64,000 nucleotides of DNA from Oscillospiraceae bacterium (GCA_015064725.1 SVRQ01000009.1:1897-65896), one strand, 5' to 3'. Shown: positions 43,732-63,391, numbered from the stretch's first letter. Numbers and translations are program-made. The notes: generated from the sequence alone by a model not told the origin.

Positions 43732-44907
43732 TTAAAGCGCTTTGAGCGTTTCCATTACGTAGTTGCCGAACTCTTCGCAGGTAGCACCTGTATCTCTGCC
43801 CGTGATGGTGATCTTCTTTTCTTCAAAGCAGCAGATGTCAAGCGCTTTTGCAAGCTTGTCTGCTTTTTCCTGCAAGCCGATGTGGGAAAGGAGCATTACG
43901 CAGCCGCGGAGCATAGAGCAGGGGTCTGCATACTGTGCTCTGCCTTCCTTGACCATTCTGGGCGCGGAGCCGTGGATGGCTTCGAACATAGCGTATTTTT
44001 TGCCGATGTTGGCACAGCCCGCCGTGCCTACACCGCCCTGGAATTCTGCGGCTTCGTCGGAGATGATATCGCCGTAGAGGTTGGGAGCAACGAGTACCTT
44101 GAAATCTCTGCGTCTTTTGGGGTCAACGAGCTTCGCCGTGATGATGTCCGCGTACCATTCGTCCGTTGTGATCTCGGGGTATTCTTCTGCAACCTTGTGG
44201 CAATCTTCAAGGAAGTTGCCGTCCGTTGTCTTGATGACGTTTGCTTTGGAGATAAGGGAAACTCTGCCGTAGCCGTTCTTTCTTGCGTAATCGTAAGCAA
44301 GACGAGCTATTCTGTCCGAGCCCTGCTTCGTTGTGATAACGAAGTCAACGGCGAGGTCATCCGTTACGTTGAAGCCTTCTTTACCTACCGCGTATCCGCC
44401 CTCCGTGTTTTCACGGAAGATCGTCCAGTCGATGCCCTCTGCGGGCACCTTAACGGGGCGGATGTTTGCAAAGAGGTCGAGTGCTTTTCTCATAGCGACG
44501 TTTGCGCTTTCGATGTTGGGCATACCGTCGCCCTTCTGGGGAGTCGTTGTCGGTCCTTTAAGGATGATCTCGCAGGATTTAAGCTGTGCCATAACGTCAT
44601 CGGGGATAGCTTTGCCGCAGGCGATTCTGTTTTCGATGGTAAGACCGTCGATGTTTACGAATTCCACCTTGCCCGCTTCAACCATATCAGCAAGCATAAA
44701 TTCAAGCACACGTCTTGCTTCCGCCGTGATAGTGGGGCCGATGCCGTCACCGCCGCATACGCCGATGCGGATCTTTTCGAGGGCGTTGTAATCTACAAAA
44801 TCGCCCTGAGATTTCATATCTTCGATTCTTACAAGCTGTTTTTCAAGAATTTTTCTGAATTTTTCGCAAGCCGCATCGAGCTGTGCGTTTACGTTTACGT
44901 CTGCCAT
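43732..44907 (-). CDS. isocitrate dehydrogenase (isocitrate/isopropylmalate dehydrogenase family)
   Basis: Family signature NLYGDIISDEAA. GGDGIGP nucleotide-binding N-terminus. The operon context (aconitase, citrate synthase) favours isocitrate. 391 aa. Confidence 0.8.
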   Translation of the reverse strand: MADVNVNAQLDAACEKFRKILEKQLVRIEDMKSQGDFVDYNALEKIRIGVCGGDGIGPTITAEARRVLEFMLADMVEAGKVEFVNIDGLTIENRIACGKAIPDDVMAQLKSCEIILKGPTTTPQKGDGMPNIESANVAMRKALDLFANIRPVKVPAEGIDWTIFRENTEGGYAVGKEGFNVTDDLAVDFVITTKQGSDRIARLAYDYARKNGYGRVSLISKANVIKTTDGNFLEDCHKVAEEYPEITTDEWYADIITAKLVDPKRRRDFKVLVAPNLYGDIISDEAAEFQGGVGTAGCANIGKKYAMFEAIHGSAPRMVKEGRAQYADPCSMLRGCVMLLSHIGLQEKADKLAKALDICCFEEKKITITGRDTGATCEEFGNYVMETLKAL

Positions 44908-44911
44908 TGTG

Positions 44912-46846
44912 TCAGTTCTCCTTGTCTTTTGTATAGTTGAGAAGTCCGCCTGCGAGAAGTATTTCGCGCTGGCGTGCCGTTGCTGCGAGGACGAGCGTTA
45001 CGTTTTCGCCCGTTGTCTTGTTGCAAAGTGTAAGCTCCTCTTTGTTTGCAATGCCGTCTGCAAAGCCGAGAATCTCTATATCGTCACCCTCTGCGATCTT
45101 TTCGTAATCGTCGGGGTCTTTGAACGTGAGGGGGATTATGCCGAAGTTGATAAGGTTTGCCATATGGATGCGCGCAAAGCTCTTTGCAACGACCGCCTTG
45201 ATACCGAGGTAAAGGGGAACGAGAGCCGCGTGCTCACGAGAGGAGCCCTGACCGTAGTTTGCACCGCCCACGATGATGCCGCCGCCAAGAGCCTTTGCTC
45301 TTTCGGGGAATTCTTTATCGCATACCGTGAAGCAGAATTCGGAAAGCTTCGGTACGTTGGAACGGTAGGGAAGTATCTTTGTGCCGGCGGGCATAATGTG
45401 GTCTGTTGTGATATTGTCGCCAACCTTGAGCACTGTCTTGCAGGAAAGGTCTTGTGCGGGGCGCACGCCTTTGGGGATGGGCTTGATGTTGGGGCCGCGC
45501 TCAACAAGAACGTCTGCCGATTCTTCTGCACTTGCGGGCATTTCTATAAGGTTATCGTTTACCTTCATAACCTCGGGGAGCGCGATCTCGGGAGCTTTTC
45601 CGAGCGTTCTGGGGTCTGTGAATACGCCCGTGATGGCGGAGGCTGCCGCCGTCTGGGGAGAAACGAGATATACCTTTGCATCGGCAGTGCCGCTTCTTGC
45701 TTCAAAGTTGCGGTTGAAGGTGCGAAGGCTGACACCTGCGGATTTGGGGGAGAAGCCCATACCGATGCAGGGACCGCACGCACATTCAAGGATTCTTGCG
45801 CCTGCGCTTACCATATCCGTAAGAGCGCCGCAGTCCGCAAGCATAGAGAGAACTTCTTTTGAGCCGGGGGAAACGGACATTTCTACGTCCGCGTGAACGG
45901 TTTTATCCTTGAGTATCGAGGATACCGTGAGCATATCGAGCATAGAAGAGTTCGTGCAGGAGCCTACGCATACCTGGTCGAGCTTCATTCCGGCAAGCTC
46001 GGAAACGGGGCGCACGTTGTCGGGGCTGTGGGGACAAGCCGCAAGAGGCACGAGCTCGGAAAGATCTACCGTGAGAGTTTCATCGTAAACAACGTCGTCG
46101 TCGGGAGCAAGAGGAACGTAATCGCACTCTCTCTGCTGAGATTTAAGGAAAGCGAGCGTTATTTCGTCGGAGGGGAAGACGGAGCTTGTAGCGCCGAGCT
46201 CTGCGCCCATATTCGTAATGGTTGCGCGTTCGGGAACGGAGAGCGTCTTAACGCCTTCGCCGTAGTATTCAACTACCTTTCCCACGCCGCCCTTAACGCC
46301 GAGCTTGGAAAGAACGTAGAGGATAACATCCTTGGCACCTACGAAATCGGGGAGCTTGCCTTTAAGCTCTACGCCGATTATCTTGGGCATATTGATGTAA
46401 TACGCGCCGCCGCCCATTGCAACGGCTACGTCAAGGCCGCCCGCACCCATTGCGAGCATACCAAGACCGCCCGCCGTGGGGGTATGGCTGTCGGAGCCGA
46501 TGAGGGTTTTGCCGGGTATTCCGAATCTTTCAAGGTGTACCTGGTGGCAGATGCCGTTGCCGGGACGGGAGAAACGCACGCCGTGCTTCTTTGTCACCGT
46601 CTGGATATATCTGTGGTCGTCTGCATTTTCAAAGCCGGCCTGAAGCGTGTTGTGGTCGATATATGCCACGGAAAGCTCTGTTTTAACTCTTTCCGTGCCC
46701 ATCGCTTCAAACTGGAGGTACGCCATAGTACCCGTTGCGTCCTGTGTAAGTGTCTGGTCTATGCGGAGTCCTATCTCGCTTCCCGGAGTCATTTCACCGG
46801 AAACGAGGTGGTTTTTGATTATTTTCTGCGCTATGGTAAGTCCCAT
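44912..46846 (-). CDS. aconitate hydratase
   Basis: Aconitase Fe-S ligand regions IGSDSHTP, GSCTNSS and CGPCIG. C-terminal swivel domain. 644 aa. Confidence 0.9.
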   Translation of the reverse strand: MGLTIAQKIIKNHLVSGEMTPGSEIGLRIDQTLTQDATGTMAYLQFEAMGTERVKTELSVAYIDHNTLQAGFENADDHRYIQTVTKKHGVRFSRPGNGICHQVHLERFGIPGKTLIGSDSHTPTAGGLGMLAMGAGGLDVAVAMGGGAYYINMPKIIGVELKGKLPDFVGAKDVILYVLSKLGVKGGVGKVVEYYGEGVKTLSVPERATITNMGAELGATSSVFPSDEITLAFLKSQQRECDYVPLAPDDDVVYDETLTVDLSELVPLAACPHSPDNVRPVSELAGMKLDQVCVGSCTNSSMLDMLTVSSILKDKTVHADVEMSVSPGSKEVLSMLADCGALTDMVSAGARILECACGPCIGMGFSPKSAGVSLRTFNRNFEARSGTADAKVYLVSPQTAAASAITGVFTDPRTLGKAPEIALPEVMKVNDNLIEMPASAEESADVLVERGPNIKPIPKGVRPAQDLSCKTVLKVGDNITTDHIMPAGTKILPYRSNVPKLSEFCFTVCDKEFPERAKALGGGIIVGGANYGQGSSREHAALVPLYLGIKAVVAKSFARIHMANLINFGIIPLTFKDPDDYEKIAEGDDIEILGFADGIANKEELTLCNKTTGENVTLVLAATARQREILLAGGLLNYTKDKEN

Positions 46847-46861
46847 ATCGGTGGTGTCCTT

Positions 46862-47521
46862 TCAATCTTTATTTTGTATTATGGTAAGCAGGTTTGAGAG
46901 TGCGAGCTCTACGTGCGCGGACATGAGCGAATCCGCGCCATCGGCATCGCCTTTTTTGATAGCTTCAACGATCTCTCTGTGTTCCGCCAATGATCTTTCA
47001 AGCCGTCCCTTAACGGAAAGGGAAAGCTTGCGGTAGCACACGATGTAGCGGTGAAGCTCCGAAAGCGTTTTGCCGAGTATCCTGCTTTGGCAATAGCCGT
47101 AGATTATATCGTGAAAGTCGGAATCAAGGTCCTTGAGCTTTTCTATATTTCCCTTGGACATATAAAATTCCGTAAGCTCTATGTTGTCCGAAAGCTGACG
47201 GATGAGCGTTTCGTCTGCGTTTTCCGCGGCGATGCGCGCGGCAAGCCCCTCAAGGCGCGTTCTTATTTTATATATATCGATAAGATCGCGCTCGGAAATG
47301 CCAACGACCACCGCGCCCTTGTTCGGGCGAAGCTTTATAAGCCCCTCGCGGTCGAGGCGCTGGAGTGCTTCGCGCACGGGTGTGCGGCTTACGCCCAGCT
47401 CCTTTGAAAGCTTCATTTCCGTAACGGAGTCACCAGCACGAAGCTTTTGGGAAAGTATTTGATCTTCAAGTATGTTATAGACCTTTTCTTCAAGTGTTGA
47501 TGCTCCGTCCGGTTGAAACAT
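46862..47521 (-). CDS. GntR-family transcriptional regulator (FadR/FCD subfamily)
   Basis: Winged HTH (LSKELGVSRTPVREALQRLDREGLI) plus a C-terminal FCD domain. 219 aa. Confidence 0.88.
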   Translation of the reverse strand: MFQPDGASTLEEKVYNILEDQILSQKLRAGDSVTEMKLSKELGVSRTPVREALQRLDREGLIKLRPNKGAVVVGISERDLIDIYKIRTRLEGLAARIAAENADETLIRQLSDNIELTEFYMSKGNIEKLKDLDSDFHDIIYGYCQSRILGKTLSELHRYIVCYRKLSLSVKGRLERSLAEHREIVEAIKKGDADGADSLMSAHVELALSNLLTIIQNKD

Positions 47522-47547
47522 CTTTGCGTCCTGCCTTCTGTTGTAGA

Positions 47548-48954
47548 TTATTCTTCGGTGGTCTGCGCTTCTTCTTTTGCGTTTGCTGCTTCAAGCTCCT
47601 TGCTAAGGGAGATGAATATCTCTTCGAGCTCGGGATCCGTCATAAGCGTCACTCTGCCTTCGGCGTAAAGCTTGTCGATAGCATCCTTCATTTTAATAAC
47701 TATCTCGTCACGCTTGGATACCGTTTCCTCTCCGCGCAAGCGGTAGTGGTTGTTTATCCAATATGCAATTCCCGCAAGGCCTGATGTGTTGGAAACGGAA
47801 ACGCTGGCGGGCACGCCGAGTATGCGCTCCGTATCGAAGATATTGTATATCTCCGCATCCTTCATCATACCGTCTGCGTGAATACCCGCGCGGGTTACGT
47901 TGAAGTTTTCTCCGATGAACGGGGTCATAGGAGGTACGTTGTAGCCGAGGTTCTTTTTATAGTATTCCGCTATCTCTGTGATAACAGAGGGATCCATACC
48001 GTCGAAGGAGCCGCGGATGGAGGCATATTCGATAACCATTGCCTCAAGCGGCACGTTGCCCGTGCGTTCTCCTATTCCGAGGAGCGAGCAGTTGACGGCG
48101 GAAGCACCGTAGAGCCAAGCCGTTGTGGCGTTGGAAACAGCCTTGTAGAAGTCGTTATGTCCGTGCCATTCAAGCATCTCACTCGGTACGTTTGCGTAAT
48201 GGTGCAAGCCATATACCATACCGGGAACGCTTCGGGGAAGGGCGACTTCGCTGAAAGGAACGCCGTAGCCCATAGTATCGCACATACGGATCTTTACGGG
48301 GATGTTCGCCTGCTCGGAAAGCTCTGTAAGCTCATTTACGAAGGGAACAACGAAACCGTAGAAATCGGCGCGCGTAATATCTTCAAGGTGGCAACGGGGG
48401 CGAAGGCCCGCGTTGAAGGCATCGTAAACAACGGAAAGGTACTTGTTAAGTGCCTGGGAGCGCGTCATACCGAGCTTTTTGAATATATGGTAGTCGGAGC
48501 AGGAAACGAGGATACCCGTTTCTTTGATACCGATGTCGCGCACGAGCTTGAAGTCCTCCTTCGTTGCGCGTATCCAGGTCGTGATCTCCGGGAATTTATA
48601 GCCGAGCTCCATGCATTTCTCAACGGCGTCGCGGTCTTTTTTGCTGTAAACGAAAAATTCGCTCTGGCGAATTATGCCTTTTTCACCGCCGAGGCGCGAG
48701 AGCATCTTGTAAAGGTCAACTATCTGCTCCGTCGTATAGGGGGCGCGGGACTGCTGACCGTCGCGGAAGGTCGTGTCCGTGATCCATATTTCCTTGGGCA
48801 TAGAGATGGGCACTCTGCGGTGGTTGAACGGAACTTTCGGAACTTCCGTATAAGGATATATATCTCTGTACAGGTTGGGGTTTTCAACGTCCTGAAGAGA
48901 GTATTTGTATTGCGAAAATTCAAGCAAATTACTTGCGTCGCTTCTTGTAAGCAT
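47548..48954 (-). CDS. putative Re-face citrate synthase (HMGL-like / homocitrate-isopropylmalate synthase family)
   Basis: DRE-TIM metallolyase motifs TDTTFRDGQQ and EWHGHNDFYKAVSNATTAW. It is the first gene of an operon with aconitase and IDH. 468 aa. Confidence 0.65.
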   Translation of the reverse strand: MLTRSDASNLLEFSQYKYSLQDVENPNLYRDIYPYTEVPKVPFNHRRVPISMPKEIWITDTTFRDGQQSRAPYTTEQIVDLYKMLSRLGGEKGIIRQSEFFVYSKKDRDAVEKCMELGYKFPEITTWIRATKEDFKLVRDIGIKETGILVSCSDYHIFKKLGMTRSQALNKYLSVVYDAFNAGLRPRCHLEDITRADFYGFVVPFVNELTELSEQANIPVKIRMCDTMGYGVPFSEVALPRSVPGMVYGLHHYANVPSEMLEWHGHNDFYKAVSNATTAWLYGASAVNCSLLGIGERTGNVPLEAMVIEYASIRGSFDGMDPSVITEIAEYYKKNLGYNVPPMTPFIGENFNVTRAGIHADGMMKDAEIYNIFDTERILGVPASVSVSNTSGLAGIAYWINNHYRLRGEETVSKRDEIVIKMKDAIDKLYAEGRVTLMTDPELEEIFISLSKELEAANAKEEAQTTEE

Positions 48955-49309: not shown

Positions 49310-50152
49310 TTGAATAAAATAATTCTCAAGACCCAGCTTTTGTATTCCGAAATGGGAAAATCCGAAAAAAAGGTTGCGGATTGGCTTATTTCCCATCCGG
49401 GAGATAATCTTCCGATGTCTATTTCGGAGCTTGCCGAGCTTTGCGAAAGCTCGGAATCCACCATTGTGCGTTTTGCCCGCAGGCTCGGCTTTTCCGGCTA
49501 CGGAGAGCTTAAGATCTGCGTTGCGGGAGAGCAGGAGAAAAAGGTGGTATTGCCCACGATAAACGAAAATGACTCCTGCTTTGAGATACTTGAAAAAATA
49601 TGTAACGATGCATACCTTTCCTTTGAGCGCACAAAGCGCACCATCGCTCCCGAAAACATTGCCGCCGCGGCAAACCTTATCGCGGGCGCGGGCAAGACCG
49701 TGCTTATCGGTCTCGGCTCCTCCGCCTCCGTTGCACAGGATGCGGCAAACAAGTTTTTGCGCGCCGGCTACCCCGCGTACTCCTACGGGGATACGCATAT
49801 GCAGATGATAGCTGCCTCCCATATGAAGGCGGGGGACGTGCTTATAGGCGTTTCCCAATCCGGTGCTTCAAAGGATATAGTGGAGGCGCTCAAGTTCGCA
49901 AAGAGCCGCGGAATCTCCACCATCTGCATCACGGGTACAGATAGATCGCCCATTATGAAACAGAGCGACATCGTACTTTTAACGGACACGGAGGAAACGA
50001 AGCACAGCTCCCTTGCGCTGAGTTCCCATCTGTCGCGCCTGGTTGTCATAGACTCTCTTTGCTATTACCTTGTATATAGAAACGAGGCAAACGGCACGGG
50101 CCTTGACGAGGAAAACGAAAATAACCTCAGATCCAAACGCGTTAACGAATAA
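49310..50152 (+). CDS. MurR/RpiR-family transcriptional regulator (HTH + SIS sugar-phosphate domain)
   Basis: HTH_6 region (EKKVADWLISHPGD...SISELAELCESSESTIVRFARRLGFSGY). SIS domain (VLIGLGSSASVAQD...VSQSGASKD). TTG start. Confidence 0.85.
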   Translation: MNKIILKTQLLYSEMGKSEKKVADWLISHPGDNLPMSISELAELCESSESTIVRFARRLGFSGYGELKICVAGEQEKKVVLPTINENDSCFEILEKICNDAYLSFERTKRTIAPENIAAAANLIAGAGKTVLIGLGSSASVAQDAANKFLRAGYPAYSYGDTHMQMIAASHMKAGDVLIGVSQSGASKDIVEALKFAKSRGISTICITGTDRSPIMKQSDIVLLTDTEETKHSSLALSSHLSRLVVIDSLCYYLVYRNEANGTGLDEENENNLRSKRVNE

Positions 50153-50195
50153 ACAGTCAATTTTTATACAAGCAAATAAATGCGGAGGAAAAGTT

Positions 50196-51395
50196 ATGAA
50201 AATTTTGGTTATCAACTCGGGCAGTTCATCGCTTAAATATCAGCTTTTCGATATGACAAGCGGGGAAGTGCTTGCAAAAGGCCTTTGCGAACGCATCGGC
50301 GGCGAATGCGGTATCATTACCCACAAGCGCCCCGGACACGAGCCATATAAGGCAGAACCCGTGCTTCCCGACCACGGTGCGGCTCTTTCTCTGGTTCTTG
50401 GTCTTATCACGGATAAGGAGCTTGGCGTTATCGAGCATATCGACGAGATAGAAGCTGTTGGCCACCGCGTGGCACACGGCGGCGAAATGCTCAAGAGCTC
50501 TTCTCTTATCGGAGAAAAGGAGCTTGAATACCTCTATTCCATCGTGGATATAAACCCCCTGCACGGTCCGCCCGCGATCAAGGGCATAGAAGCGTGCAAA
50601 AAGCTTCTTCCCAAGGTACCGCAGGTCGGCGTTTTCGATACGTCTTATTACAGCACGATACCCGATTACACTTACATCTGCCCTTTGCCTTACGAATATT
50701 ACGAAAAATATAAAATACGCCGCTACGGCTTCCACGGCACCAGCCACCGTTTTGTAACGGCGGAATGTGCAAAGATCATGGGCAAGCCGCTTGAAGAACT
50801 TAAAATAATCACTTGCCATATGGGCAACGGCTCCTCCATCACGGCAACAAAATACGGCAAGGCTCTTGATACGTCTATGGGCTTTACCCCTCAGGACGGT
50901 CTTATAATGGGTACACGCTCCGGCGCTATAGACCCTACCGTTCTTACATATATTATGAAAACGGAAAACGTTTCCGCACAGGAAATGGACGATATAATCA
51001 ACCGCAAATCCGGTCTTCTCGGTGTTTCCGGCGTTTCCAACGACTGCCGCGAGATCTGGGAAGCTGCGGACGCAGGCAATAAGAGAGCAAAGCTTGCGCT
51101 CGATATGCTTATAAACGACGTTAAAAAGATAGTAGGCTCTTACCTTGCCGAAATGAACGGCGCGGATGCGCTCGTATTCACAGCGGGTATCGGCGAAAAT
51201 GACTTTGCCGTACGCGAAGGCGTTTGCCGCGATATGGATTTCTTCGGTATCAAGATAGACGAAGAAAAGAACAAGAACGCCGCAAGAGGCGAATTTAACG
51301 ATATTACCGCGCCGGACGGAAAGATGAAGGTCTTCATCATTCCCACGGACGAGGAATATATGATAGCAAAAGACACACAAAATCTTGTAAAATAA
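50196..51395 (+). CDS. ackA: acetate/propionate kinase
   Basis: Start moved to ATG 50196 (GGAGGA RBS). MKILVINSGSSSLKYQLF, HRVAHGG, YGFHGTSH, FTAGIGEN. 399 aa. Confidence 0.93.
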   Translation: MKILVINSGSSSLKYQLFDMTSGEVLAKGLCERIGGECGIITHKRPGHEPYKAEPVLPDHGAALSLVLGLITDKELGVIEHIDEIEAVGHRVAHGGEMLKSSSLIGEKELEYLYSIVDINPLHGPPAIKGIEACKKLLPKVPQVGVFDTSYYSTIPDYTYICPLPYEYYEKYKIRRYGFHGTSHRFVTAECAKIMGKPLEELKIITCHMGNGSSITATKYGKALDTSMGFTPQDGLIMGTRSGAIDPTVLTYIMKTENVSAQEMDDIINRKSGLLGVSGVSNDCREIWEAADAGNKRAKLALDMLINDVKKIVGSYLAEMNGADALVFTAGIGENDFAVREGVCRDMDFFGIKIDEEKNKNAARGEFNDITAPDGKMKVFIIPTDEEYMIAKDTQNLVK

Positions 51396-51418: not shown

Positions 51419-52222
51419 ATGGTTTCATCTTTCGAAATTAAAAAAGAGATCTGCGAAGTAGGTCACAAAATCTATGCAGAGGGCTTCGTTGCTGCAAACG
51501 ACGGTAACATCTCCGTTAAAGTAAACGATAACGAATACTACTGCACCCCCACAGGCGTTTCCAAGGGCGACCTTACACCCGATATGATCATTCGTATCGA
51601 CGGCAAGGGCAACAAGATCGAAGGCAGACTCAACCCCTCCTCCGAAATTAAAATGCACCTCCGTGTTTACCAGGAACGTCCCGACGTAAACGCAGTTGTA
51701 CACGCTCATCCCCCCGTTGCAACAGCCTTCACAGTTGCAGGCGTACCGCTTGACAAGTACATCCTTCCCGAAGCAGTTCTTACAATCGGCTTCGTTCCCA
51801 CTTGCGAATACGGTACACCCTCCACAATGGAAATTCCCGATTCCCTTATGCCCTACATCCAGAACCACGACGCGTTCCTTCTCAAAAACCACGGTGCTCT
51901 TACAGTAGGTAACACACTTAAAAAAGCTTTCTTCACAATGGAAGAAGTTGAATTCAACGCAAAGATCTGCAAATACGCTATGGAACTCGGCAAGGTTGAA
52001 GAAATTCCTTGCGATCAGCTTGAAAAGCTCATGGATCTCCGTAAGAAGATGCGTATCCCCGGCAAGCACCCCGGCTGCAAAACTTGCAAAAACCTCGGCA
52101 CACCCGATTGCAAGTGCAAACAGAATGCAGAACCCAAGAGCGGCATCGTAACGGCTTCCGGCGCTGACGAAGCTCTCATTGCTGAAATCACAAAGAAAGT
52201 TCTCGCTTCTCTTGGCAGATAA
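51419..52222 (+). CDS. class II aldolase (L-fuculose/rhamnulose-phosphate aldolase-like) with a C-terminal encapsulation peptide
   Basis: Aldolase_II motifs (GNISVKV, EIKMHLRVY, VVHAHPP, LLKNHGALTVG). C-terminal extension CKTCKNLGTPDCKC followed by the amphipathic helix DEALIAEITKKVLASL. Confidence 0.85.
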   Translation: MVSSFEIKKEICEVGHKIYAEGFVAANDGNISVKVNDNEYYCTPTGVSKGDLTPDMIIRIDGKGNKIEGRLNPSSEIKMHLRVYQERPDVNAVVHAHPPVATAFTVAGVPLDKYILPEAVLTIGFVPTCEYGTPSTMEIPDSLMPYIQNHDAFLLKNHGALTVGNTLKKAFFTMEEVEFNAKICKYAMELGKVEEIPCDQLEKLMDLRKKMRIPGKHPGCKTCKNLGTPDCKCKQNAEPKSGIVTASGADEALIAEITKKVLASLGR

Positions 52223-52267
52223 TTTTTGGCTTTGCTGAAAATTAAACCTTGAAAGGAGAGATATAAA

Positions 52268-53725
52268 ATGGCAATCAACTGGACAGACGCGCAGATAGAA
52301 GAGATCGTTAAAATGGTCGTTTCCCAGATCGGCGGCGAGGCGAAAAAAGAAACGCCCGCATTCGATTCCGAAAGCTATAACGGCAGAAAATTTATCGGTA
52401 TCTTCGAGGATATGAACGATGCCATAAACGCCGCAAATGCAGGCTATAAGGCAATTCGCTCTATGCGCGTTGAAGAAAGAGAAAAGCTCATCTCCAAGAT
52501 CCGCGAGCTTACGCGCGAGGAAGCCGAAATTATGGCGACCATCGGCGTTGCGGAAACAAAGATGGGCAGAGTAGATCACAAGATCGCAAAACACCGTCTT
52601 GTAGCAGACAAGACGCCCGGAACGGAAGACATCATCTCTCAGGTTAAAACAGGCGACTGCGGTCTTACGCTTACGGAAATGGCTCCTTTCGGCGTTGTTG
52701 GCAGCATTACTCCCAGCACGAACCCTTCCGAAACAGTCATCTGCAACAGTATGGGTATGATAGCGGCGGGCAACGGTATCGTTTTCAACCCCCACCCCAA
52801 CGCTATTGCAACATCCAACTATGCCGTTGACCTTATAAACCGTGCGTGCTTCGCAGCGGGCGGCCCCAAGATACTTGTTGCCTCCGTTAAGAAGCCCACG
52901 CTCGATACGGCGAACATTATGTATAAGAGCCCGCTTATCAGACTTCTCGTTTGTACCGGCGGCCCCGGCGTTGTAAAAGCTGTTCTTTCCTCCGGCAAGA
53001 AGGCTATCGGCGCGGGCGCGGGAAATCCCCCCGTTATCGTTGACGATACGGCGGATATAAAGAAAGCCGCAAAAGACATTATCGACGGCTGTACGTTCGA
53101 TAACAACCTGCCCTGCATCGCGGAAAAGGAAGTTTTCGCGTTCGACAATATTGCGGACGAGCTTATCGACGGTATGCTGAAGAACGGCGCATACAAGATC
53201 ACGGCGGCGCAAGCGGACGAGCTTGCAAAGATAGTTCTCGTTGACGTTAAGAACCCCAAAACAGGCATCGTTAAGAAGACTGTTTGCCGCGACTGCGTCG
53301 GCAGAGATGCAAAGGTGCTTCTCTCCAAGATCGGCGTAAGCGTTGGCGATGAGGTTCGCTGCATTATATGCGAAACGGGCTTTGACCACCTCTTCGTTCA
53401 GGAAGAGCTTATGATGCCCATCCTTCCCATCGTTCGCGTTAAGAACATCGACGAAGCTATCGAAAAGGCTGTTGCCGCAGAACACGGAAACAGACATACG
53501 GCTCATATGCACTCCAAGAATATCGACAACCTCACAAGATTTGCGCGTGCGGTTGAAACGACTATATTCGTTAAAAACGCTCCTTCCTACGCGGGCATAG
53601 GCTTTGGCGGCGAAGGACATACAACATTTACTATCGCAGGCCCCACGGGCGAGGGTATCACCTCCGCGAAGAGCTTTACTCGCCTTCGCCGCTGCGTAAT
53701 GGCGGACAATTTCCGCATAATCTAA
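52268..53725 (+). CDS. CoA-acylating aldehyde dehydrogenase (PduP/EutE-like) with an N-terminal encapsulation peptide
   Basis: N-terminal helix TDAQIEEIVKMVVSQI followed by a linker. ALDH core with catalytic Cys in NNLPCIAEKE. 485 aa. Confidence 0.88.
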   Translation: MAINWTDAQIEEIVKMVVSQIGGEAKKETPAFDSESYNGRKFIGIFEDMNDAINAANAGYKAIRSMRVEEREKLISKIRELTREEAEIMATIGVAETKMGRVDHKIAKHRLVADKTPGTEDIISQVKTGDCGLTLTEMAPFGVVGSITPSTNPSETVICNSMGMIAAGNGIVFNPHPNAIATSNYAVDLINRACFAAGGPKILVASVKKPTLDTANIMYKSPLIRLLVCTGGPGVVKAVLSSGKKAIGAGAGNPPVIVDDTADIKKAAKDIIDGCTFDNNLPCIAEKEVFAFDNIADELIDGMLKNGAYKITAAQADELAKIVLVDVKNPKTGIVKKTVCRDCVGRDAKVLLSKIGVSVGDEVRCIICETGFDHLFVQEELMMPILPIVRVKNIDEAIEKAVAAEHGNRHTAHMHSKNIDNLTRFARAVETTIFVKNAPSYAGIGFGGEGHTTFTIAGPTGEGITSAKSFTRLRRCVMADNFRII

Positions 53726-53744
53726 TCGAAAGGATGAGATAGAA

Positions 53745-54992
53745 ATGGCATTTAACCCTTCCGACATTGAAAGCATCGTTCGCAAGATCGTAAGCGAGAT
53801 GAACGGCGCGGGCGAGCACAAGCACGAATGCTGCGGCGGCCACGGCGGCGAATGCAAATGCGGCAAGCATTCCGCAGGCATCCCCAAGACAGCCAAGGTT
53901 GCGATGCTTACAAAAACAAAAACTATCGAGATCAAGGAATTCCCCATTCCCGAACTTCAGGATGACGACATCCTCGTTAAGGTAGAAGGCGCAGGCATCT
54001 GCGGTACGGACGTTCACGAATGGAGAGCAGACCCGTTCGGTCTTATGCCCGTAGTCCTCGGTCACGAAGGCACAGGCGAGATCATTGCTCTCGGTAAAAA
54101 CATTAAAACAGATACATCCGGCAAGCCCATCAAGGTTGGCGATAAGGTGGTAACTTCCGTTATCTCCTGCGGCGAATGCAACATCTGCCGCAACCATCCC
54201 GCGAATACAAACCTTTGCGACAAGCAGGGCGTGTTCGGCCTTATCCCCCACAATGACGAACAGCCCCTCCTCGGCTGGTTCGCAACACATCTTCTTATCC
54301 GCGGCAAGGGTTCTACATACTTTGTTGTAAACGACCTTGACCTTTACGAAAGAATGATACTTGAGCTTGCTTGCGTTTGCGTTCACGCCCTCAAGCGTGC
54401 AAACGGCACAGGTCTTATGAATTTCAATACTAAAGTTGTTATCCAGGGTCTTGGCCCCGTTGGTCTTGTTATGGCTTGCGTGCTCCGCGCGGCGGGTATC
54501 AACCATATCATCGCCATCGACGGTACACAGACAAGACTTGATATGGCTAAAAAGCTCGGCGTTAAGACAGTCATCAACTTCAAGGAAGCAAAAACTCTTG
54601 AAGAGCGCGTAGCTCTCGTTACGGAAGCGTGCGGCGGCAACCTTGCCGACTTCGCATTCCAGTGCACGGGCGTTCCCGCGGCTGCTGCCGACATCTACTC
54701 CTACATCCGCCGCGGCGGCGGTATGTGCGAAATGGGCTTCTTCGTTAACAACGGCGAATACCAGATCAACCCCCACTTCACAATGTGCAACAAAGAGATC
54801 AACCTTGTTGGTTCTTGGGACTACAGCGCAGACGATTATCCCACAACAATGGCGTTCCTCCGTCAGGCAAGAGAGATGAACATTCCGATCAAAGAACTCA
54901 TCACTCATACATATCCGCTTGAAAAGATGAACGAAGCAATGGAAATGAACGTTTCCCAGCAGGGCATAAAGATCTGCTACGTTGCTGACTAA
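53745..54992 (+). CDS. zinc-dependent MDR alcohol dehydrogenase with an N-terminal encapsulation peptide
   Basis: N-terminal helix SDIESIVRKIVSEM, then HKHECCGGHGGECKCGKH. The MDR core has GICGTDVHEW, GHEGTGEI, structural Zn site CGECNICRNHPANTNLC, and GLGPVG NAD-binding fold. 415 aa. Confidence 0.85.
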   Translation: MAFNPSDIESIVRKIVSEMNGAGEHKHECCGGHGGECKCGKHSAGIPKTAKVAMLTKTKTIEIKEFPIPELQDDDILVKVEGAGICGTDVHEWRADPFGLMPVVLGHEGTGEIIALGKNIKTDTSGKPIKVGDKVVTSVISCGECNICRNHPANTNLCDKQGVFGLIPHNDEQPLLGWFATHLLIRGKGSTYFVVNDLDLYERMILELACVCVHALKRANGTGLMNFNTKVVIQGLGPVGLVMACVLRAAGINHIIAIDGTQTRLDMAKKLGVKTVINFKEAKTLEERVALVTEACGGNLADFAFQCTGVPAAAADIYSYIRRGGGMCEMGFFVNNGEYQINPHFTMCNKEINLVGSWDYSADDYPTTMAFLRQAREMNIPIKELITHTYPLEKMNEAMEMNVSQQGIKICYVAD

Positions 54993-55003
54993 GGAGAGCG
55001 CAT

Positions 55004-55342
55004 ATGGCACTCGGTATGATAGAAGTTTACGGCTTTACCACGGCTATCGTTGTAGCAGATAAGGTTGCAAAAAGTGCCGATGTCAAGGTCGTTGCTATAG
55101 ACAAAAATAAGCCCGCAAACGCAGATAAGGTGGAAGTTCCCCTTGTTATGGTAGTTAAGTTTGAGGGCGGCGCTTCCGAGGTTGCCGCGGCTATGGACGC
55201 AGGCGTTGCGGAAGCGGAAAAGAGAAATCTTTTCATTACATCAAAGCTTATTTCCAGACAGTCGGAGGAGATAGAGTGGTTCGCGAATCTCAGCGCACTC
55301 GGAAAAGACAAACTCCGCAACACGGAAAAAGAAGAAAACTAA
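55004..55342 (+). CDS. BMC-H shell protein (divergent, with internal insertion and C-terminal tail)
   Basis: Pfam00936-type start ALGMIEVYGFTTAIVVADKVAKSADV. Insertion DKNKPANADKVEVP. 112 aa. Confidence 0.8.
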   Translation: MALGMIEVYGFTTAIVVADKVAKSADVKVVAIDKNKPANADKVEVPLVMVVKFEGGASEVAAAMDAGVAEAEKRNLFITSKLISRQSEEIEWFANLSALGKDKLRNTEKEEN

Positions 55343-55391
55343 AAAAAATAAAAATCAAACAAAAATATAAAATTAAAGGAGAACAATTATT

Positions 55392-55667
55392 ATGCAGGAA
55401 GCACTCGGTATGGTAGAAACAAGAGGTCTCGTTGCAGCTATCGAAGCAGCGGACGCAATGGTTAAAGCAGCAAACGTAACACTCGTAGGTAGCGAAAAGA
55501 TCGGTTCCGGTCTCGTAAGCGTAATGGTTCGCGGCGACGTTGGCGCTGTTAACGCAGCAGTTGCAGCAGGCGGCGAAGCAGCTCAGAGACTCGGCGAAGT
55601 AGTTGCTACACACGTAATTCCTCGTCCTCACACAGACGTTGAAAAACTTCTCCCTAAACTCGGCTAA
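55392..55667 (+). CDS. BMC-H shell protein (PduA/PduJ-like)
   Basis: [27 protein letters not shown]...[10 protein letters not shown]...HVIPRPH. 91 aa. Confidence 0.93.
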
Positions 55668-55691
55668 TTCTTAAAGAAACGGTACGAAATT

Positions 55692-55967
55692 ATGGATCAG
55701 GCAATAGCGTTACTCGAAGTACAGGCGCTCGTTACAGCCATCGCGGGACTTGATGCGATGGTAAAGGCGGCAAATGTAAAGCTCATCCACGTCGAGAAAC
55801 GCTTGGGCGGACGATTGGTAACAGTCGTTGTGCAGGGCAGCGTGTCCGATGTGACCGCGGCTCTTGAAGCAGGTGTAAAAGCGGCGAAGCTTGTTGGCAA
55901 CGTAAAACTTGCGGAAGTTATCGCACGCCCGCACCCCGACGTTATGAGCTTTCTCACAACGGGTTGA
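55692..55967 (+). CDS. BMC-H shell protein (divergent paralog)
   Basis: [28 protein letters not shown]...VVVQGSVSDV...VIARPH. 91 aa. Confidence 0.88.
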   Translation: MDQAIALLEVQALVTAIAGLDAMVKAANVKLIHVEKRLGGRLVTVVVQGSVSDVTAALEAGVKAAKLVGNVKLAEVIARPHPDVMSFLTTG

Positions 55968-56016
55968 TAAGACCCATTTGAAGAAATACAAAAAATTTTA
56001 ATGGAGGTAATATACA

Positions 56017-56289
56017 ATGGAAGCACTCGGTATGGTAGAAACAAGAGGTCTTGTTGCGGCTATCGAAGCAGCAGATGCTATGGTTAAATCCGCTAACGTT
56101 ACACTTATCGGCAGCGAAAAGATCGGTTCCGGTCTCGTAAGCGTAATGGTTCGCGGCGACGTTGGCGCTGTTCAGGCTGCTGTTGCAGCAGGCGGCGACG
56201 CAGCTCAGAGACTCGGCGAAGTTGTAGCTACACACGTAATTCCTCGTCCTCACACAGACGTTGAAAAACTTCTCCCCAAGCTCGGCTAA
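56017..56289 (+). CDS. BMC-H shell protein (PduA/PduJ-like, near-duplicate of 55392..55667)
   Basis: Differs from the 55392 product by 4 substitutions and a 1-residue indel. 90 aa. Confidence 0.93.
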
Positions 56290-56578: not shown

Positions 56579-57235
56579 ATGGAATATTCATCTGCGGAAA
56601 TAGCCGCAATCGTTAAAAAAGTTATATCCGATATGGGAAGCACCGAAGAAAATAACGGCGCAGACGTGCCGATCGGCGTTTCCAACCGCCACGTACACCT
56701 TTCCAGAGAGCACCTCGATATTCTTTTCGGGAAGGGATACGAGCTTACGAAAGCCAAAGACCTTTCTCAGCCGGGACAGTATGCGGCAAACGAGGTAGTA
56801 ACTATTGTCGGACCCTCGCTTCGCCCCATCGAAAAGGTAAGAGTTCTCGGTCCCATCCGTTCCGCTTCCCAGGTGGAAGTATCTATGACGGACTCTTACG
56901 TACTCAAGGTCAAGCCCCCTGTGCGCGAATCCGGCAGCATCGAAGGCTCTGCGGGTATCACAATGATCGGCCCAAAGGGTGTTGTAACTCTTAAAGAGGG
57001 CTGCATTATCGCAAACCGCCACATACATATGGGCATTGCCGATGCCGAAAAATACGCGGTATCCGACGGAGATTACGTTACCGTTGACGTTGAGGGCAAG
57101 GGCAAAAAGACACGCTGGTACGGCGTTCAGGTAAGAGTAAACAAGAATTTTGCTCTTGAAATGCACGTTGACACGGATGACGCAAACGCTGCGGGAATCG
57201 GCAACGGCAGCCTTGTTAAAATTGTCAAAGAATAA
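56579..57235 (+). CDS. pduL: phosphate propanoyltransferase PduL (PTAC) with an N-terminal encapsulation peptide
   Basis: N-terminal helix SAEIAAIVKKVISDM. Two PduL repeats (VSNRHVHLS..., IANRHIHM...). 218 aa. Confidence 0.92.
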   Translation: MEYSSAEIAAIVKKVISDMGSTEENNGADVPIGVSNRHVHLSREHLDILFGKGYELTKAKDLSQPGQYAANEVVTIVGPSLRPIEKVRVLGPIRSASQVEVSMTDSYVLKVKPPVRESGSIEGSAGITMIGPKGVVTLKEGCIIANRHIHMGIADAEKYAVSDGDYVTVDVEGKGKKTRWYGVQVRVNKNFALEMHVDTDDANAAGIGNGSLVKIVKE

Positions 57236-57256: not shown

Positions 57257-57505
57257 ATGTTAAAGGGAATCGTTGTCGGAAACGTGGTTTCCACAAAAAA
57301 ACAGGAATCTCTTATGGGAAGCAAATTCCTTGAAGTAAACCTTATAGAAAACGGTGTTAAGACCGATAAATATATAATCGCGGTCGACAGCGTCGGTGCG
57401 GGTATCGGCGAGGTCGTTCTCGTGACGACGGGAAGCAGCGCGCGCCTTGCGCTTCGCAACCAGTTTGAGCCCGTTGACGCGGTTATCGTAGGTATAGTTG
57501 ACTGA
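57257..57505 (+). CDS. BMC-P pentameric vertex protein (EutN/PduN/CcmL family)
   Basis: MLKGIVVGNVVSTKK...AVDSVGAGIGEVVLVTTGSSAR...VDAVIVGIVD. 82 aa. Confidence 0.92.
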   Translation: MLKGIVVGNVVSTKKQESLMGSKFLEVNLIENGVKTDKYIIAVDSVGAGIGEVVLVTTGSSARLALRNQFEPVDAVIVGIVD

Positions 57506-57525: not shown

Positions 57526-58956
57526 ATGTCGGGTGAAATGAACAATATTTCCGTTAAGGAAACGAAATATCCGCTTTACAGAAAACCCGCGCCCGCACCC
57601 GATACGCACGACGGCATACTTCGTATGACCGCCACACATATCGAGTTTAAGGAAAGCGTAAAGACCGCCGGCATTGTCGGCGCGGGCGGCGCAGGTTTCC
57701 CATCTTACGCGAAGATCGCAGACGGCGTTGATACGATTCTTATCAACGGCGCGGAATGTGAGTCCCTGCTTTATACGGACTACGTTCTTATGCGCGATGA
57801 GCTTCGCAAAGTAGTGGAGGGTATAGATCACGTTGTTACGAATACAACGGCGAAAAAAGGTCTTCTTTGCGTAAAGGAGCATACGGGCAAGGAGCTTGGC
57901 TTCTTTGACGGGCAGAAGCTTTCCGAGCATACATTTGTGAAGTTTTTGCCGAACGTGTATCCTATGGGCGATGAAGTAAGCCTTATTTATGAGGCTACGG
58001 GCAGAAGCATCAAGCCCGGTTCGCTCCCCATCTCCGTGGGCGTTATAGTTTACAACGTGGAAACGGTTTTTGATATAAGAGAAGCACTCAAACACAGAAT
58101 TGCAGTTACGCATAAATGGCTTACGGTTGGCGGAAACACGGAAAAGAGCTTTGTTGTAAGAGTTCCCGTGGGTATGTACGTAAAGGAGCTTTTGGAAATG
58201 CTCGGTGTCAGCGTGCCGAAGGGCAACGTGGTGCTTGACGGCGGTCCGGCTATGGGCAGAGTTATAGATCACGAACGCGCCGCCGTTACAAAGACGACAA
58301 AATCGATCCTTATACTGCCCGAAAGCTTGCCGATAATACAGAGCAAGATGACGTCGCTTGACGTGCAGGTGCGCCGCGGCACTTCCGCGTGCTGCCAATG
58401 CACAAGATGTACGGACCTTTGCCCCAGAAACCAGCTCGGTTATCCTTTGGAGCCGCACAAGCTCGTGCGCGCGGCGCAGGGCGCAGGTATCGTTGACCCC
58501 AAGATATTCGCAACGGCAACGCTTTGCTGCGGATGCGGCATTTGCGAGCACGCGGCGTGCGGTCAGGGTCTTTCCCCCAGAGCGATGATATTTAAGCTCA
58601 AGGACGATCTTGCAAAGAACAAGACGAGATATATTTCCGACGAAACCATCTCTCCCAGAGATACAAGGGATTACCGCCTTATCTCAAGCGAGCGTTGGAA
58701 AGAGATAATCGGCGTTTCCAAATATGATAAGAAAGCCGAATTTATAGATAAGGACTTTGCTCCCTCCAGAGTAGAAATATCTATGAGAGGCCACATAGGC
58801 GCACCCTCCGTTCCTTGCGTTGAAAAGGGACAGGCAGTTGCCTTGGGCGAAAAGATAGCGGACGCGGCAGACGGACTTTCGCTTCCGCAGTACGCTTCCA
58901 TCTCCGGCGTTTGCCGCCGTGTGGACAGCGACAAGATAATCATTGAAAGAATATAA
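57526..58956 (+). CDS. PduS/RnfC-like Fe-S flavoprotein
   Basis: GAGGAGFPSYAK and NGAECESLL (RnfC/PduS NADH-FMN region). SLBB-like middle. Two 4Fe-4S motifs, CCQCTRCTDLCP and CCGCGICEHAC. 476 aa. Confidence 0.8.
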   Translation: MSGEMNNISVKETKYPLYRKPAPAPDTHDGILRMTATHIEFKESVKTAGIVGAGGAGFPSYAKIADGVDTILINGAECESLLYTDYVLMRDELRKVVEGIDHVVTNTTAKKGLLCVKEHTGKELGFFDGQKLSEHTFVKFLPNVYPMGDEVSLIYEATGRSIKPGSLPISVGVIVYNVETVFDIREALKHRIAVTHKWLTVGGNTEKSFVVRVPVGMYVKELLEMLGVSVPKGNVVLDGGPAMGRVIDHERAAVTKTTKSILILPESLPIIQSKMTSLDVQVRRGTSACCQCTRCTDLCPRNQLGYPLEPHKLVRAAQGAGIVDPKIFATATLCCGCGICEHAACGQGLSPRAMIFKLKDDLAKNKTRYISDETISPRDTRDYRLISSERWKEIIGVSKYDKKAEFIDKDFAPSRVEISMRGHIGAPSVPCVEKGQAVALGEKIADAADGLSLPQYASISGVCRRVDSDKIIIERI

Positions 58957-58977: not shown

Positions 58978-59523
58978 ATGTATCAGGCCATAGGTATAAT
59001 TGAGCTTAAAAGTATAGCTAAAGGCGTTGAAGCGTGTGACTCCGCGCTTAAAAGCGCAGGCATTACGCTTGTCAGCGCACATCCGTCGTGTCCCGGAAAA
59101 TATGAGATAATCATCACGGGTGCTATTGCCGACGTAAGCGCGGCTCTCTCCCACGTGAAAACAAGATTTGAAGGAACTATAATAGACTCCTCCCTTATGG
59201 GCAGAATAGATCCGCAGGTCATCACCGCGCTCTTCGGCACGGAGCCCATAAAGAAAAGCGGCTCTCTCGGCGTTATAGAAACGTACAGCGCGGCAAGCGC
59301 AATAAAGGCTGCGGATATTGCCGTTAAAACGGCAAAGGTCGATATATACGATCTTCGCGTTTCTCGCGGTATGGGCGGTAAGGGTCTTGTTATGGTGACG
59401 GGCGACGTCGGTGACGTAAATGCGGCTGTTGAAGCAGGCGCTTCCCACGCGGCGGACCTCGGACTTCTTATGAACAAATCCGTTATTGCCGCACCGCACA
59501 AAGAGCTTTGGGAACAAATTTGA
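58978..59523 (+). CDS. BMC-T tandem-domain shell protein (PduT-like)
   Basis: Two fused BMC domains (AIGIIELKSIAKGVEACD... and SLGVIETYSAASAIKAAD...). The Cys in HPSCPGKY sits where PduT binds its pore Fe-S cluster. 181 aa. Confidence 0.88.
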   Translation: MYQAIGIIELKSIAKGVEACDSALKSAGITLVSAHPSCPGKYEIIITGAIADVSAALSHVKTRFEGTIIDSSLMGRIDPQVITALFGTEPIKKSGSLGVIETYSAASAIKAADIAVKTAKVDIYDLRVSRGMGGKGLVMVTGDVGDVNAAVEAGASHAADLGLLMNKSVIAAPHKELWEQI

Positions 59524-62433: not shown

Positions 62434-63219
62434 ATGGGCATTCTCGATACACAGGGAAGAATATTCGATATACAGCGTTTCTCCATCCACGACGGACCCG
62501 GCATACGCACGATAATCTTCCTTAAAGGCTGCGCCCTGCGCTGCCGTTGGTGCTGCAACCCCGAATCTCAGGAGTTTAAAATCCAGGAGATGGAGCGCGC
62601 AGGCAAAAAAGAGATAATCGGGCGCGACGTTACCGTGCGCGATATTATGGACGAGATCGAAAGTGACTCTCCGTATTATGACAGAAGCGGTGGAGGCGTT
62701 ACGCTTTCAGGCGGCGAGGCACTTTGCCAGCCTGAATTTGCCGCGGCGATACTTAAAGCGTGCCACGACAGGGGCATCAACACAGCGATAGAGACCACGG
62801 GATACGCAAAACGCGAGGTGCTTGAAAAGGTAATTCCTCACGTTGACTACGTTCTTATGGATATAAAGCATATAAACGGCGAAAAGCACAAGGAATTTAC
62901 GGGCAGGGATAACGCGCTCATCCTTGAAAACGCGAGGTATATTGCGGAAATGGCGGATGATATGACCGTCCGTGTACCCGTGATACCCACGTTTAACGAT
63001 ACGGTTGAGGAGATACGCGCTATTGCAAAATTTGCGTCAAAGCTTCCAAAGGTGATGCACTTGCATCTTTTGCCGTACCATAGACTCGGCAGGGATAAAT
63101 ATACGGGTCTTGGAAGAGATTATGCGCTTGACGGAATTGAACCGTTGCCAAGTGAAAAGATAAATACGCTCTACGAAGCGGCGTGCGAAAGCGGCCTTAT
63201 CGTGCAGGTGGGCGGTTGA
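62434..63219 (+). CDS. glycyl-radical enzyme activating protein (radical SAM)
   Basis: IHDGPGIRTIIFLKGCALRCRWCCNPES (C33-x3-C37-x2-C40). GGGVTLSGGE motif. 261 aa with no additional Cys-cluster insert. Confidence 0.9.
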   Translation: MGILDTQGRIFDIQRFSIHDGPGIRTIIFLKGCALRCRWCCNPESQEFKIQEMERAGKKEIIGRDVTVRDIMDEIESDSPYYDRSGGGVTLSGGEALCQPEFAAAILKACHDRGINTAIETTGYAKREVLEKVIPHVDYVLMDIKHINGEKHKEFTGRDNALILENARYIAEMADDMTVRVPVIPTFNDTVEEIRAIAKFASKLPKVMHLHLLPYHRLGRDKYTGLGRDYALDGIEPLPSEKINTLYEAACESGLIVQVGG

Positions 63220-63233
63220 GCAAACGGATCAAA

Positions 63234-63385
63234 AATGCGTGAAAAAACGTAGGGACAGGCGTCCCCGAATGTTTGTTTTTACAAACGGGAGGAGCAAGCC
63301 TCCCCTACGATGCACGGACCAAAGATGCGCAAAAAAATGTAGGGACAGGCGTCCTCGACTGTCCGTCTTTATAAATGGGAGGAGA
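63234..63385 (+). repeat. two direct copies of a roughly 60-bp module-B-type repeat between the activase and the PduU-like gene
   Basis: ATGCGtgAAAAAAcGTAGGGACAGGCGTCCcCGA...GGGAGGAG lies at 63234-63295 and again at 63324-63385. The second copy supplies the GGGAGGAG RBS of the next gene. Confidence 0.85.
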
Positions 63386-63391
63386 TATTGT

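Follow-up and report, generated by a model that had tools for sequence, protein, structure and literature searches.

Why would an enzyme that carries a terminal helix for packaging into a bacterial microcompartment (BMC) keep a fixed set of cysteines between its body and that helix? The question is posed by a class II (FucA-type) aldolase of 267 aa (51419..52222, + strand), the signature enzyme of a BMC locus in a 64,000-nt stretch of an Oscillospiraceae bacterium (GCA_015064725.1 SVRQ01000009.1:1897-65896; hereafter the window, meaning the whole stretch analysed, to which all coordinates refer, whereas residue numbers are those of the aldolase). BMC tethers have been treated, and engineered, as a helix on a featureless and unconserved linker; in the present tether, a stretch of that linker forms a conserved motif. 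The C-terminal encapsulation peptide (EP) of this enzyme was already known as a class, and what is new, and apparently undescribed, is a conserved Cys module within the encapsulation tether, probably a structural accessory.

A cysteine motif in the aldolase tether

The open reading frame (ORF) belongs to the class II aldolase/FucA family. Pfam PF00596 (Aldolase_II) covered residues 10-183 (E = 9e-48; cutoff 22.2 bits), the closest solved relatives were L-fuculose-1-phosphate aldolases (phmmer against the PDB: 6.7e-26 to 6btd, 1e-23 to E. coli FucA), and Foldseek returned TM scores of at least 0.8 to FucA structures, with the SSE and HxH motifs lining up with FucA-type chains and the alignment reaching about residue 205. 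The catalytic Glu and the three His metal ligands (E76, H95, H97 and H158, which we take to be E73, H92, H94 and H155 of FucA) were invariant in 43 homologs. So were P214, G215, P218 and G219 of PGKHPG (residues 214-219; 52058..52075, +), the invariant end of the core of this aldolase subfamily, in which H217 was at least 90% conserved; because PGKHPG is also kept in paralogs that have neither the Cys nor the helix, it is part of the enzyme subfamily and not of the insert. Past the last core helix (198-210) the order is RIPGKHPG-C220-KT-C223-KNLGTPD-C231-K-C233-KQN-AEPKSGIVTASGA-DEALIAEITKKVLASL-GR, the tail as a whole reading ...MRIPGKHPGCKTCKNLGTPDCKCKQNAEPKSGIVTASGADEALIAEITKKVLASLGR. The Cys module (C220-K-T-C223-K-N-L-G-T-P-D-C231-K-C233-K-Q-N) spans 52076..52126 (+), with the Cys codons at 52076-52078 (C220), 52085-52087 (C223), 52109-52111 (C231) and 52115-52117 (C233). 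It is followed by a variable, flexible linker (A237-A249; 52127..52165, +) of mixed A/S/G/T/P composition, and then by the EP, DEALIAEITKKVLASL (D250-L265; 52166..52213, +). In AlphaFold2 (AF2) models the predicted local distance difference test (pLDDT) was below 50 for residues 238-248 and intermediate for the Cys module (55-71), which had no regular secondary structure, as might be expected of a knuckle modelled without its metal.

Judged from its sequence and from the model, the C-terminal helix is an EP of an already described class. AF2 placed a helix at residues 251-264 (pLDDT ~93; tail-only model), its pattern (xxLIAEITKKVLASL) parallels the N-terminal helices of the aldehyde dehydrogenase (AldDH), alcohol dehydrogenase (ADH) and PduL of the same locus, and an EP-like C-terminus was found in 119 of 120 close homologs, while paralogs (70-83% identity) in loci without BMC genes stop shortly past HPG and have no helix. 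One paralog was of a different kind: L060 (contig CASFQZ010000108.1) lacks the Cys and has no BMC genes in its 7.4-kb contig, yet ends in an EP-like helix (LADRIAKAVLRELGKEE), which may mark a satellite locus or a relic. C-terminal EPs on class II aldolases of glycyl-radical-enzyme microcompartment type 5 (GRM5), Planctomycetes-Verrucomicrobia microcompartment (PVM) and PVM-like loci have been known since 2015 (Aussignargues et al., PMC4594438), and they share with the present one the enzyme family, the amphipathic C-terminal helix, the locus type and the absence of the helix from non-BMC homologs. The difference lies in the linker. The aldolase linker is described in PMC4594438 as having no compositional or sequence conservation (a table in the same paper gives aldolase linkers 5.5% Cys, the highest among all cargo), whereas in this aldolase a strictly conserved Cys4 motif, coupled to a core Cys, makes up the proximal third of the "linker". 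An unconserved linker, one of the marks by which an EP is recognized in that paper, is thus found only at residues 237-249, residues 220-236 being strictly conserved.

Conservation was followed in the 120 best representatives of clusters at 90% identity, which were 71-97% identical to the window aldolase. An intact C-x2-C-x7-C-x-C directly past HPG was present in 114 of them; the other six comprised two without the whole segment, two with a single Cys substitution and two in which no HPG anchor was seen (one of them, P0082, frameshifted). The family consensus is PG[RK]HPG-C-K-x-C-x-N-L-G-T-x-x-C-[RK]-C-K-x-N, in which G227 and T228 were invariant, N225 was kept in 112/114 and K234 in 108/114. 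Fixed non-Cys residues and a position-specific motif argue for a defined fold, not for a mere Cys-rich composition. Codons were compared in 28 coding sequences, all module-bearing (27 species-level genomes plus the window). Both TGC and TGT were used at the conserved Cys, Gly and Thr were encoded by four codons each, and the proportion of synonymous differences (pS) was ~0.6, with synonymous sites near saturation. The ratio of nonsynonymous to synonymous proportions (pN/pS) was 0.21 in the core, 0.38 in the EP, 0.79 in the 14 codons that follow the module and 0.41 in the module itself, the last value being biased slightly downward because the sequences were chosen by motif presence. By this ratio the module is under purifying selection much like the EP and unlike the linker, and the Cys pattern exceeds chance, given its retention in 114/120 representatives despite mixed Cys codons and near-saturated synonymous sites.

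Beyond the four-Cys core, 86/120 representatives carry an extra distal CxC in the linker region, often as H-x-C-x-C-G-x-H; the window aldolase is without it and represents a minority form with four tail Cys. GRM5 aldolases of Lachnospiraceae and Blautia (52-54% identical) have another but alignable spacing, C-x7(9)-C-H-x-C-x1-3-C within HPA[ND]L-C-[QP]-N-K-x-G-x-N-C-H-x-C-G-x(1-3)-C, and no C198. At least four Cys were retained in 116/120 of these, some of whose clusters hold thousands of member sequences, and the two forms of the module align through C[PQ]NxGTxNC. A thiol count that is held while positions shift is typical of a metal site. In a very abundant subgroup of the Lachnospiraceae-type aldolases (P0255, P0260, P0263 and P0300, in clusters of ~1000-2200 members), an additional aromatic stretch (…FPGYQYDFVG…) separates the Cys module from the EP.

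Searches for relatives of the module returned only the aldolases themselves. An exhaustive hmmsearch with a 30-position module profile against 1.84 billion representative proteins gave 11 matches, all of them aldolase C-termini, fragments of these or chimeric assemblies containing one. By this measure the module appears private to this aldolase family, and the idea of a mobile module shared among cargo was rejected, 11/11 matches being aldolase tails. The chimeric entries (P0243-P0246 and P0251) join an unrelated N-terminus to an aldolase tail, for example an AldDH N-terminus joined at EEREKL/LEKLMELRKK, and are probably assembly artefacts at short shared words. Pfam gave no match to the window tail at E values up to 10; one Blautia tail had a sub-threshold match to zf-C3HC (E = 0.029, below cutoff). 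Sequence and profile searches of the PDB (phmmer, profile) yielded nothing significant, the best match (E = 2.3) being a chance one to a disulfide-bonded loop of the transferrin family, and Foldseek with the tail model gave 0 matches, with nothing usable for the tail from either model. Metallothioneins come to mind, with their CxC and CxxC interspersed with Lys, and the linker of the neighboring ADH (ECCGGHGGECKCGKH) and variants such as CSCGGNCSCG do look metallothionein-like; the aldolase module differs in its fixed register, its only four Cys and the lack of a Pfam match, and does not resemble a multi-metal cluster peptide. No description of the Cys motif was found in the literature searched, outside which lay the original GRM classification paper (Applied and Environmental Microbiology, 2015). 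An earlier note on this DNA, drawn from the sequence alone, had likewise known of no such description. It had placed the tail, the Cys codons and the helix at exactly the coordinates given above, and had taken the helix for a BMC EP of the kind described on GRM aldolases, with which the AF2 helix, its BMC-restricted occurrence and PMC4594438 agree. The conservation of the four Cys among orthologs, which the note had named as its own test, is borne out in the window clade and, as a count of at least four, in Lachnospiraceae and Blautia; its "Gly/Ser-type linker" gives way to the mixed stretch at 237-249.

Coupling to a core cysteine and loss outside microcompartment loci

The module does not vary independently of the enzyme body. 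C198, at the start of the last core helix (codon 52010..52012, +), co-occurs with the proximal CxxC: it was present in 146/146 sequences with CxxC right past HPx and in 2/172 without, and in one homolog (P0031) C198 and C223 were both lost. In a neighbor-joining (NJ) tree built from the core only, with residue 198 and the tail left out, C198 together with the module was ancestral in the window clade, and joint loss had occurred in about five separate branches, in four of which the EP and the BMC context were gone as well. Paralogs that lie outside BMC loci and have no EP lack both the tail Cys and C198. Since the Cys are lost with the EP and the BMC context, they are irrelevant to aldolase chemistry and kept only in the encapsulated enzyme. 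A role for the module in catalysis or as part of an active-site lid was rejected in view of these close paralogs, which do without it. As the module tracks the EP and not catalysis, we read it as serving encapsulation.

The module is accessory and not required for the organelle. One clade, Candidatus Scatosoma with its relatives, carries a brief run of acidic residues (HPG-IDYGE...) in its place and keeps the EP and the same locus, and one such contig (P0103) holds a full set including BMC-P, PduS, BMC-T, glycyl radical enzyme (GRE) and activase. A single CxC is sometimes retained in this clade. To judge from these sequences, the module may be helpful without being indispensable. Among the tails of L022-L053, strongly acidic residues (IDYGEEE, IEYDEE) stand where the basic module (net charge ~+5) is missing, so that the tether base has its charge reversed.

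Possible roles of the module

The reading we favor, with a probability of about 0.5, is that the Cys module forms one or more metal-thiolate sites, probably binding Zn, by which the tether is stapled at its base to the body of the aldolase. A site that folds the tail onto the last helix is suggested by the fixed register, the turn-forming residues, the presence of four to five thiols and a His, and the coupling to C198, 22 residues upstream. PGKHPG would run back along the last core helix so that C220 and C223 meet C198 in the core, possibly together with H217. C231 and C233 would complete this first site or, in the majority of orthologs, join with the distal CxC in a second one; in the window aldolase they would either complete the first site or stay a half-site. 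The outcome would be a folded basic cap, stapled onto the enzyme, and the flexible linker and the helix would emerge from this cap. Such a cap would fix the point at which the tether leaves the tetramer. The C-terminal tail is catalytically relevant in FucA-type enzymes, and the cap may shield it from the pull of an aggregated or shell-bound helix; alternatively, it might offer a docking surface inside the core. Zn2+ would be the default metal for sites of this kind in a non-redox enzyme, although Fe or a small Fe-S centre is possible in these anaerobes. Structural thiolate-metal sites are more plausible here than disulfides, since the shell also encloses an O2-labile GRE and the bacteria are strict anaerobes, and a disulfide mechanism in the lumen of such an organelle is unlikely.

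Two known systems come close to such a staple. The zinc-binding anti-sigma factor (ZAS) sites of RsrA and ChrR combine an upstream Cys or His with H-x3-C-x2-C, and in the aldolase C198 as the upstream Cys, together with H217 and the CxxC of C220 and C223, could similarly form a Cys3His site that staples two segments. The likeness has limits: the aldolase (H217-P-G-C220-K-T-C223) is spaced H-x2-C-x2-C, it has neither an anti-sigma domain nor a Pfam match in its tail, and H217 stays conserved in sequences that have none of the Cys. Class II ribonucleotide reductases are said to carry a Cys-rich C-terminal zinc finger (reportedly the subject of work by Loderer et al. in 2017), which resembles the aldolase module in being a small Cys4 site (its metal putative in the aldolase) in the flexible C-terminal tail of a metabolic enzyme; that finger positions a redox-active Cys pair for turnover, whereas the aldolase Cys are lost outside the organelle, which points to a non-catalytic role.

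Several points weigh against a stapled tether base. Ligand bookkeeping is ambiguous for one or two sites, the window protein having five Cys and one His and no distal CxC, and the conservation of H217 in the absence of all Cys leaves its part as a ligand unproven. Pfam, PDB and Foldseek gave no match to a known zinc-finger, zinc-ribbon, zinc-knuckle, metallothionein or Fe-S family. The coupling to C198 was read from related sequences and a rough NJ tree, and a whole clade with identical locus architecture does without the module, so that any role must be modulatory.

The alternative that survives best, though we regard it as distinctly less probable than the staple, is intermolecular metal bridging of the zinc-hook or zinc-clasp type, in which half-sites on different tethers (aldolase-aldolase, aldolase-ADH or aldolase-PduL) would cross-link cargo into a pre-shell condensate. 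This is essentially what the earlier note had proposed on seeing two cargo proteins with matching Cys-rich tethers. In the zinc hook of Rad50 and the zinc clasp of CD4 and Lck a metal is held between molecules, and CxxC and CxC half-sites on flexible segments could share one here in the same manner; the comparison concerns the distal CxC, common among the orthologs, and the sporadic clusters of ADH and PduL. An isolated CxC next to the EP also persists in about half of the clade that lacks the main module, which fits a bridge. In contrast to the hook and the clasp, partner Cys are missing in most genomes, and the proximal aldolase module looks intramolecular in its tight spacing, its fixed non-Cys residues and its coupling to C198.

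The linkers of the other cargo bear directly on this alternative. The ADH of the window has an N-terminal EP-like helix (PSDIESIVRKIVSEM; 53757-53801, +), conserved in all full-length homologs, followed by a Cys/His-rich linker (EHKHECCGGHGGECKCGKH; 53814-53870, +) that is limited to the closest relatives (at least ~76-85% identity). At 75-80% identity, the linkers of most ADH orthologs are short, composed of G/S/A/K and free of Cys. The similarity of the ADH linker to the aldolase tail, to which the earlier note had drawn attention, is therefore real in the window and lineage-specific beyond it. A 2015 survey of EPs had found no obvious EP on BMC alcohol dehydrogenases, which there belonged mostly to another ADH family (PMC4594438). 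Across genomes the Cys content of linkers was 12.4% in the aldolase, 3.9% in ADH, 1.6% in PduL and 1.0% in AldDH (53 genomes for AldDH). The ADH clusters are sporadic (CSSCSSC, CCGSSCC, CSCGGNCSCG), and four of the seven Cys in PduL linkers come from one genome, L029 (contig CAZUQN010000003.1), whose PduL linker is CKNDCVICKSRESC with a four-Cys insert, STDKCKNDCVICKSRESCTDG, and whose aldolase and ADH linkers are Cys-free; all other PduL linkers examined had at most one Cys. A mini-motif, C-S-C-G-G-[NS]-C-x-[CH], recurs nearly identically in the ADH linkers of L011, L075 and P0123, which belong to distantly related lineages (window-like clade and Lachnospiraceae-type GRM5), through either convergence or exchange of linker segments.

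Positive co-variation of ADH-linker Cys with the aldolase module was sought across genomes and was not found. Loci with a Cys-free aldolase tail had a cluster of at least three Cys in another linker in 4/8 cases vs 4/36 in the remainder (p = 0.026, uncorrected for phylogeny), a weak inverse trend that hints at compensation and would suit a bridge, but is marginal and confounded by phylogeny. In most genomes with a full module the ADH, AldDH and PduL linkers are Cys-free, leaving no heterologous partner. A zinc clasp between the aldolase and ADH tethers, for which Cys should co-occur in both, was rejected for this reason, and the matched pair of Cys-rich tethers does not extend past the closest relatives of the window.

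Somewhat less probable still is a broader version, in which Cys clusters on cargo tethers constitute a metal- or redox-gated assembly code, and metals shared between tethers, or between tether and body, decide core condensation. Such clusters would always be present in the aldolase of most lineages, and sporadically in the ADH or PduL of those whose aldolase no longer has one. If it were true, zinc or iron availability, or redox state, would control organelle formation in abundant gut anaerobes. We also considered whether Cys-rich tethers serve as a zinc store for the zinc enzymes (aldolase, ADH and PduL); the ranking of linkers by Cys fits, but the ADH and PduL clusters are sporadic. Enzymes are, moreover, metallated before packaging, which counts against a store.

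An iron or Fe-S site (a rubredoxin-like Fe(Cys)4 or a small cluster), acting as electron relay, iron store or redox sensor in a "redox-replete" GRM, is improbable. Fe-Cys sites are common in strict anaerobes, which the hosts are, and CxC motifs ligate clusters in some enzymes, for example ferredoxin:thioredoxin reductase. GRM loci are rich in Fe-S proteins (PduS-like, PduT-like BMC-T, activase), and GRM5 activases alone are without the ferredoxin-like insertion (PMC6325248). The module (C-x2-C-x7-C-x-C) fits neither the canonical Fe-S motif CxxCxxC...CP nor rubredoxin CxxCG...CPxCG, and neither Fer nor Rubredoxin was matched in Pfam. Electrons are not needed for the aldolase reaction, and the module has been lost while GRE, activase and PduS stay.

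A little more doubtful again is a thiol/disulfide redox switch, in which oxidation of the Cys, perhaps accompanied by Zn release of the Hsp33 or RsrA kind, would alter the tether and couple cargo packing or release to O2 or redox state. C198...H217-x2-C220-x2-C223 loosely resembles the ZAS arrangement, and a sensor might be useful, as GRE organelles are presumably damaged by O2. Carboxysomes offer precedents for redox-sensitive Cys in CcmM (SSUL) and CsoS2, where conserved Cys also lie in partly disordered segments that mediate assembly of the core. In these aerobes they presumably respond to an oxidising lumen, whereas the present organelle holds an O2-labile GRE and its hosts are obligate gut anaerobes. 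The spacing differs from that of ZAS, no homology to a known switch was seen, and sequence data cannot tell a switch from a static site.

That the Cys-rich sequence has no specific function and is a tolerated linker composition inherited by descent, as its dispensability in one clade and the coming and going of ADH-linker Cys might suggest, is very improbable in view of its near-universal retention at near-saturated synonymous sites, a pN/pS half that of the adjacent linker, a ligand count conserved in a clade only 52% identical, and its loss together with C198 and the EP.

A metal-thiolate staple would add a third element to the targeting extension: a putative metal motif that co-evolves with a residue of the core and persists only as long as the enzyme is packaged. 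Gut Clostridia that are very abundant (Blautia, Lachnospiraceae, Oscillospiraceae) have the module in their GRM5 organelles for fucose/rhamnose. Should it order cargo or cross-link it, both the modelling of core assembly and the design of synthetic cargo tags would profit; should it do no more than stabilise the tail, it is a minor structural footnote.

The GRM5 locus and minor observations

The aldolase lies in a complete GRM5-type locus in which GRE, activase, class II aldolase, ADH, AldDH, PduL and BMC-H, BMC-T and BMC-P proteins are all present, following the definition of GRM5 by gene content (PMC6325248, PMC4207490). All genes of the locus are on the + strand and, unless stated otherwise, were assigned by Pfam. 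A regulator of the RpiR family (49310-50152) and acetate kinase (50193-51395) precede the aldolase as a pair that is syntenic in related genomes (L001-L053); the regulator named for the first GRM5 loci was of the DeoR type (PMC4207490). Downstream of the aldolase are the acylating AldDH (52268..53725; Aldedh), whose N-terminal EP and Cys-free linker make it an internal control, and the Zn-dependent ADH of the medium-chain dehydrogenase/reductase (MDR) type (53745..54992; ADH_N, ADH_zinc_N), a putative lactaldehyde reductase. These are followed by four BMC-H genes (55004-56289), PduL (56579-57235), BMC-P (57257-57505; the EutN_CcmL label is carried over from a syntenic 82-aa gene of L081), a PduS/RnfC-like flavoprotein (57526-58956), BMC-T (58978-59523), GRE (59544-62072), the GRE activase (62434-63219; 261 aa) and a further BMC-domain protein (63239-63760). 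The activase has no ferredoxin insertion, which matches the description of GRM5. The nearest genome, at 95% identity, was a metagenome-assembled genome of an uncultured Clostridia member from roe-deer caecum.

The first BMC-H paralog (55004-55342, 112 aa) has a C-terminal extension of ~30 residues past the BMC domain that is charged and partly acidic (…SRQSEEIEWFANLSALGKDKLRNTEKEEN) and could be a luminal or cytosolic interaction tail. Opposite the aldolase, AldDH, ADH and acetate kinase genes run three very long antisense ORFs of 840, 444 and 384 aa (51425-53947, 53676-55010 and 50226-51380, all on the - strand). Their translations are of low complexity, and we take them for shadow ORFs arising from codon bias and not for genes. 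Upstream of the BMC locus and divergent from it, a minus-strand cluster (43732-48954) encodes an isocitrate/isopropylmalate dehydrogenase, an aconitase-family protein, a GntR/FCD regulator and an HMGL-like enzyme (homocitrate/citramalate synthase type), and is unconnected with the Cys module.

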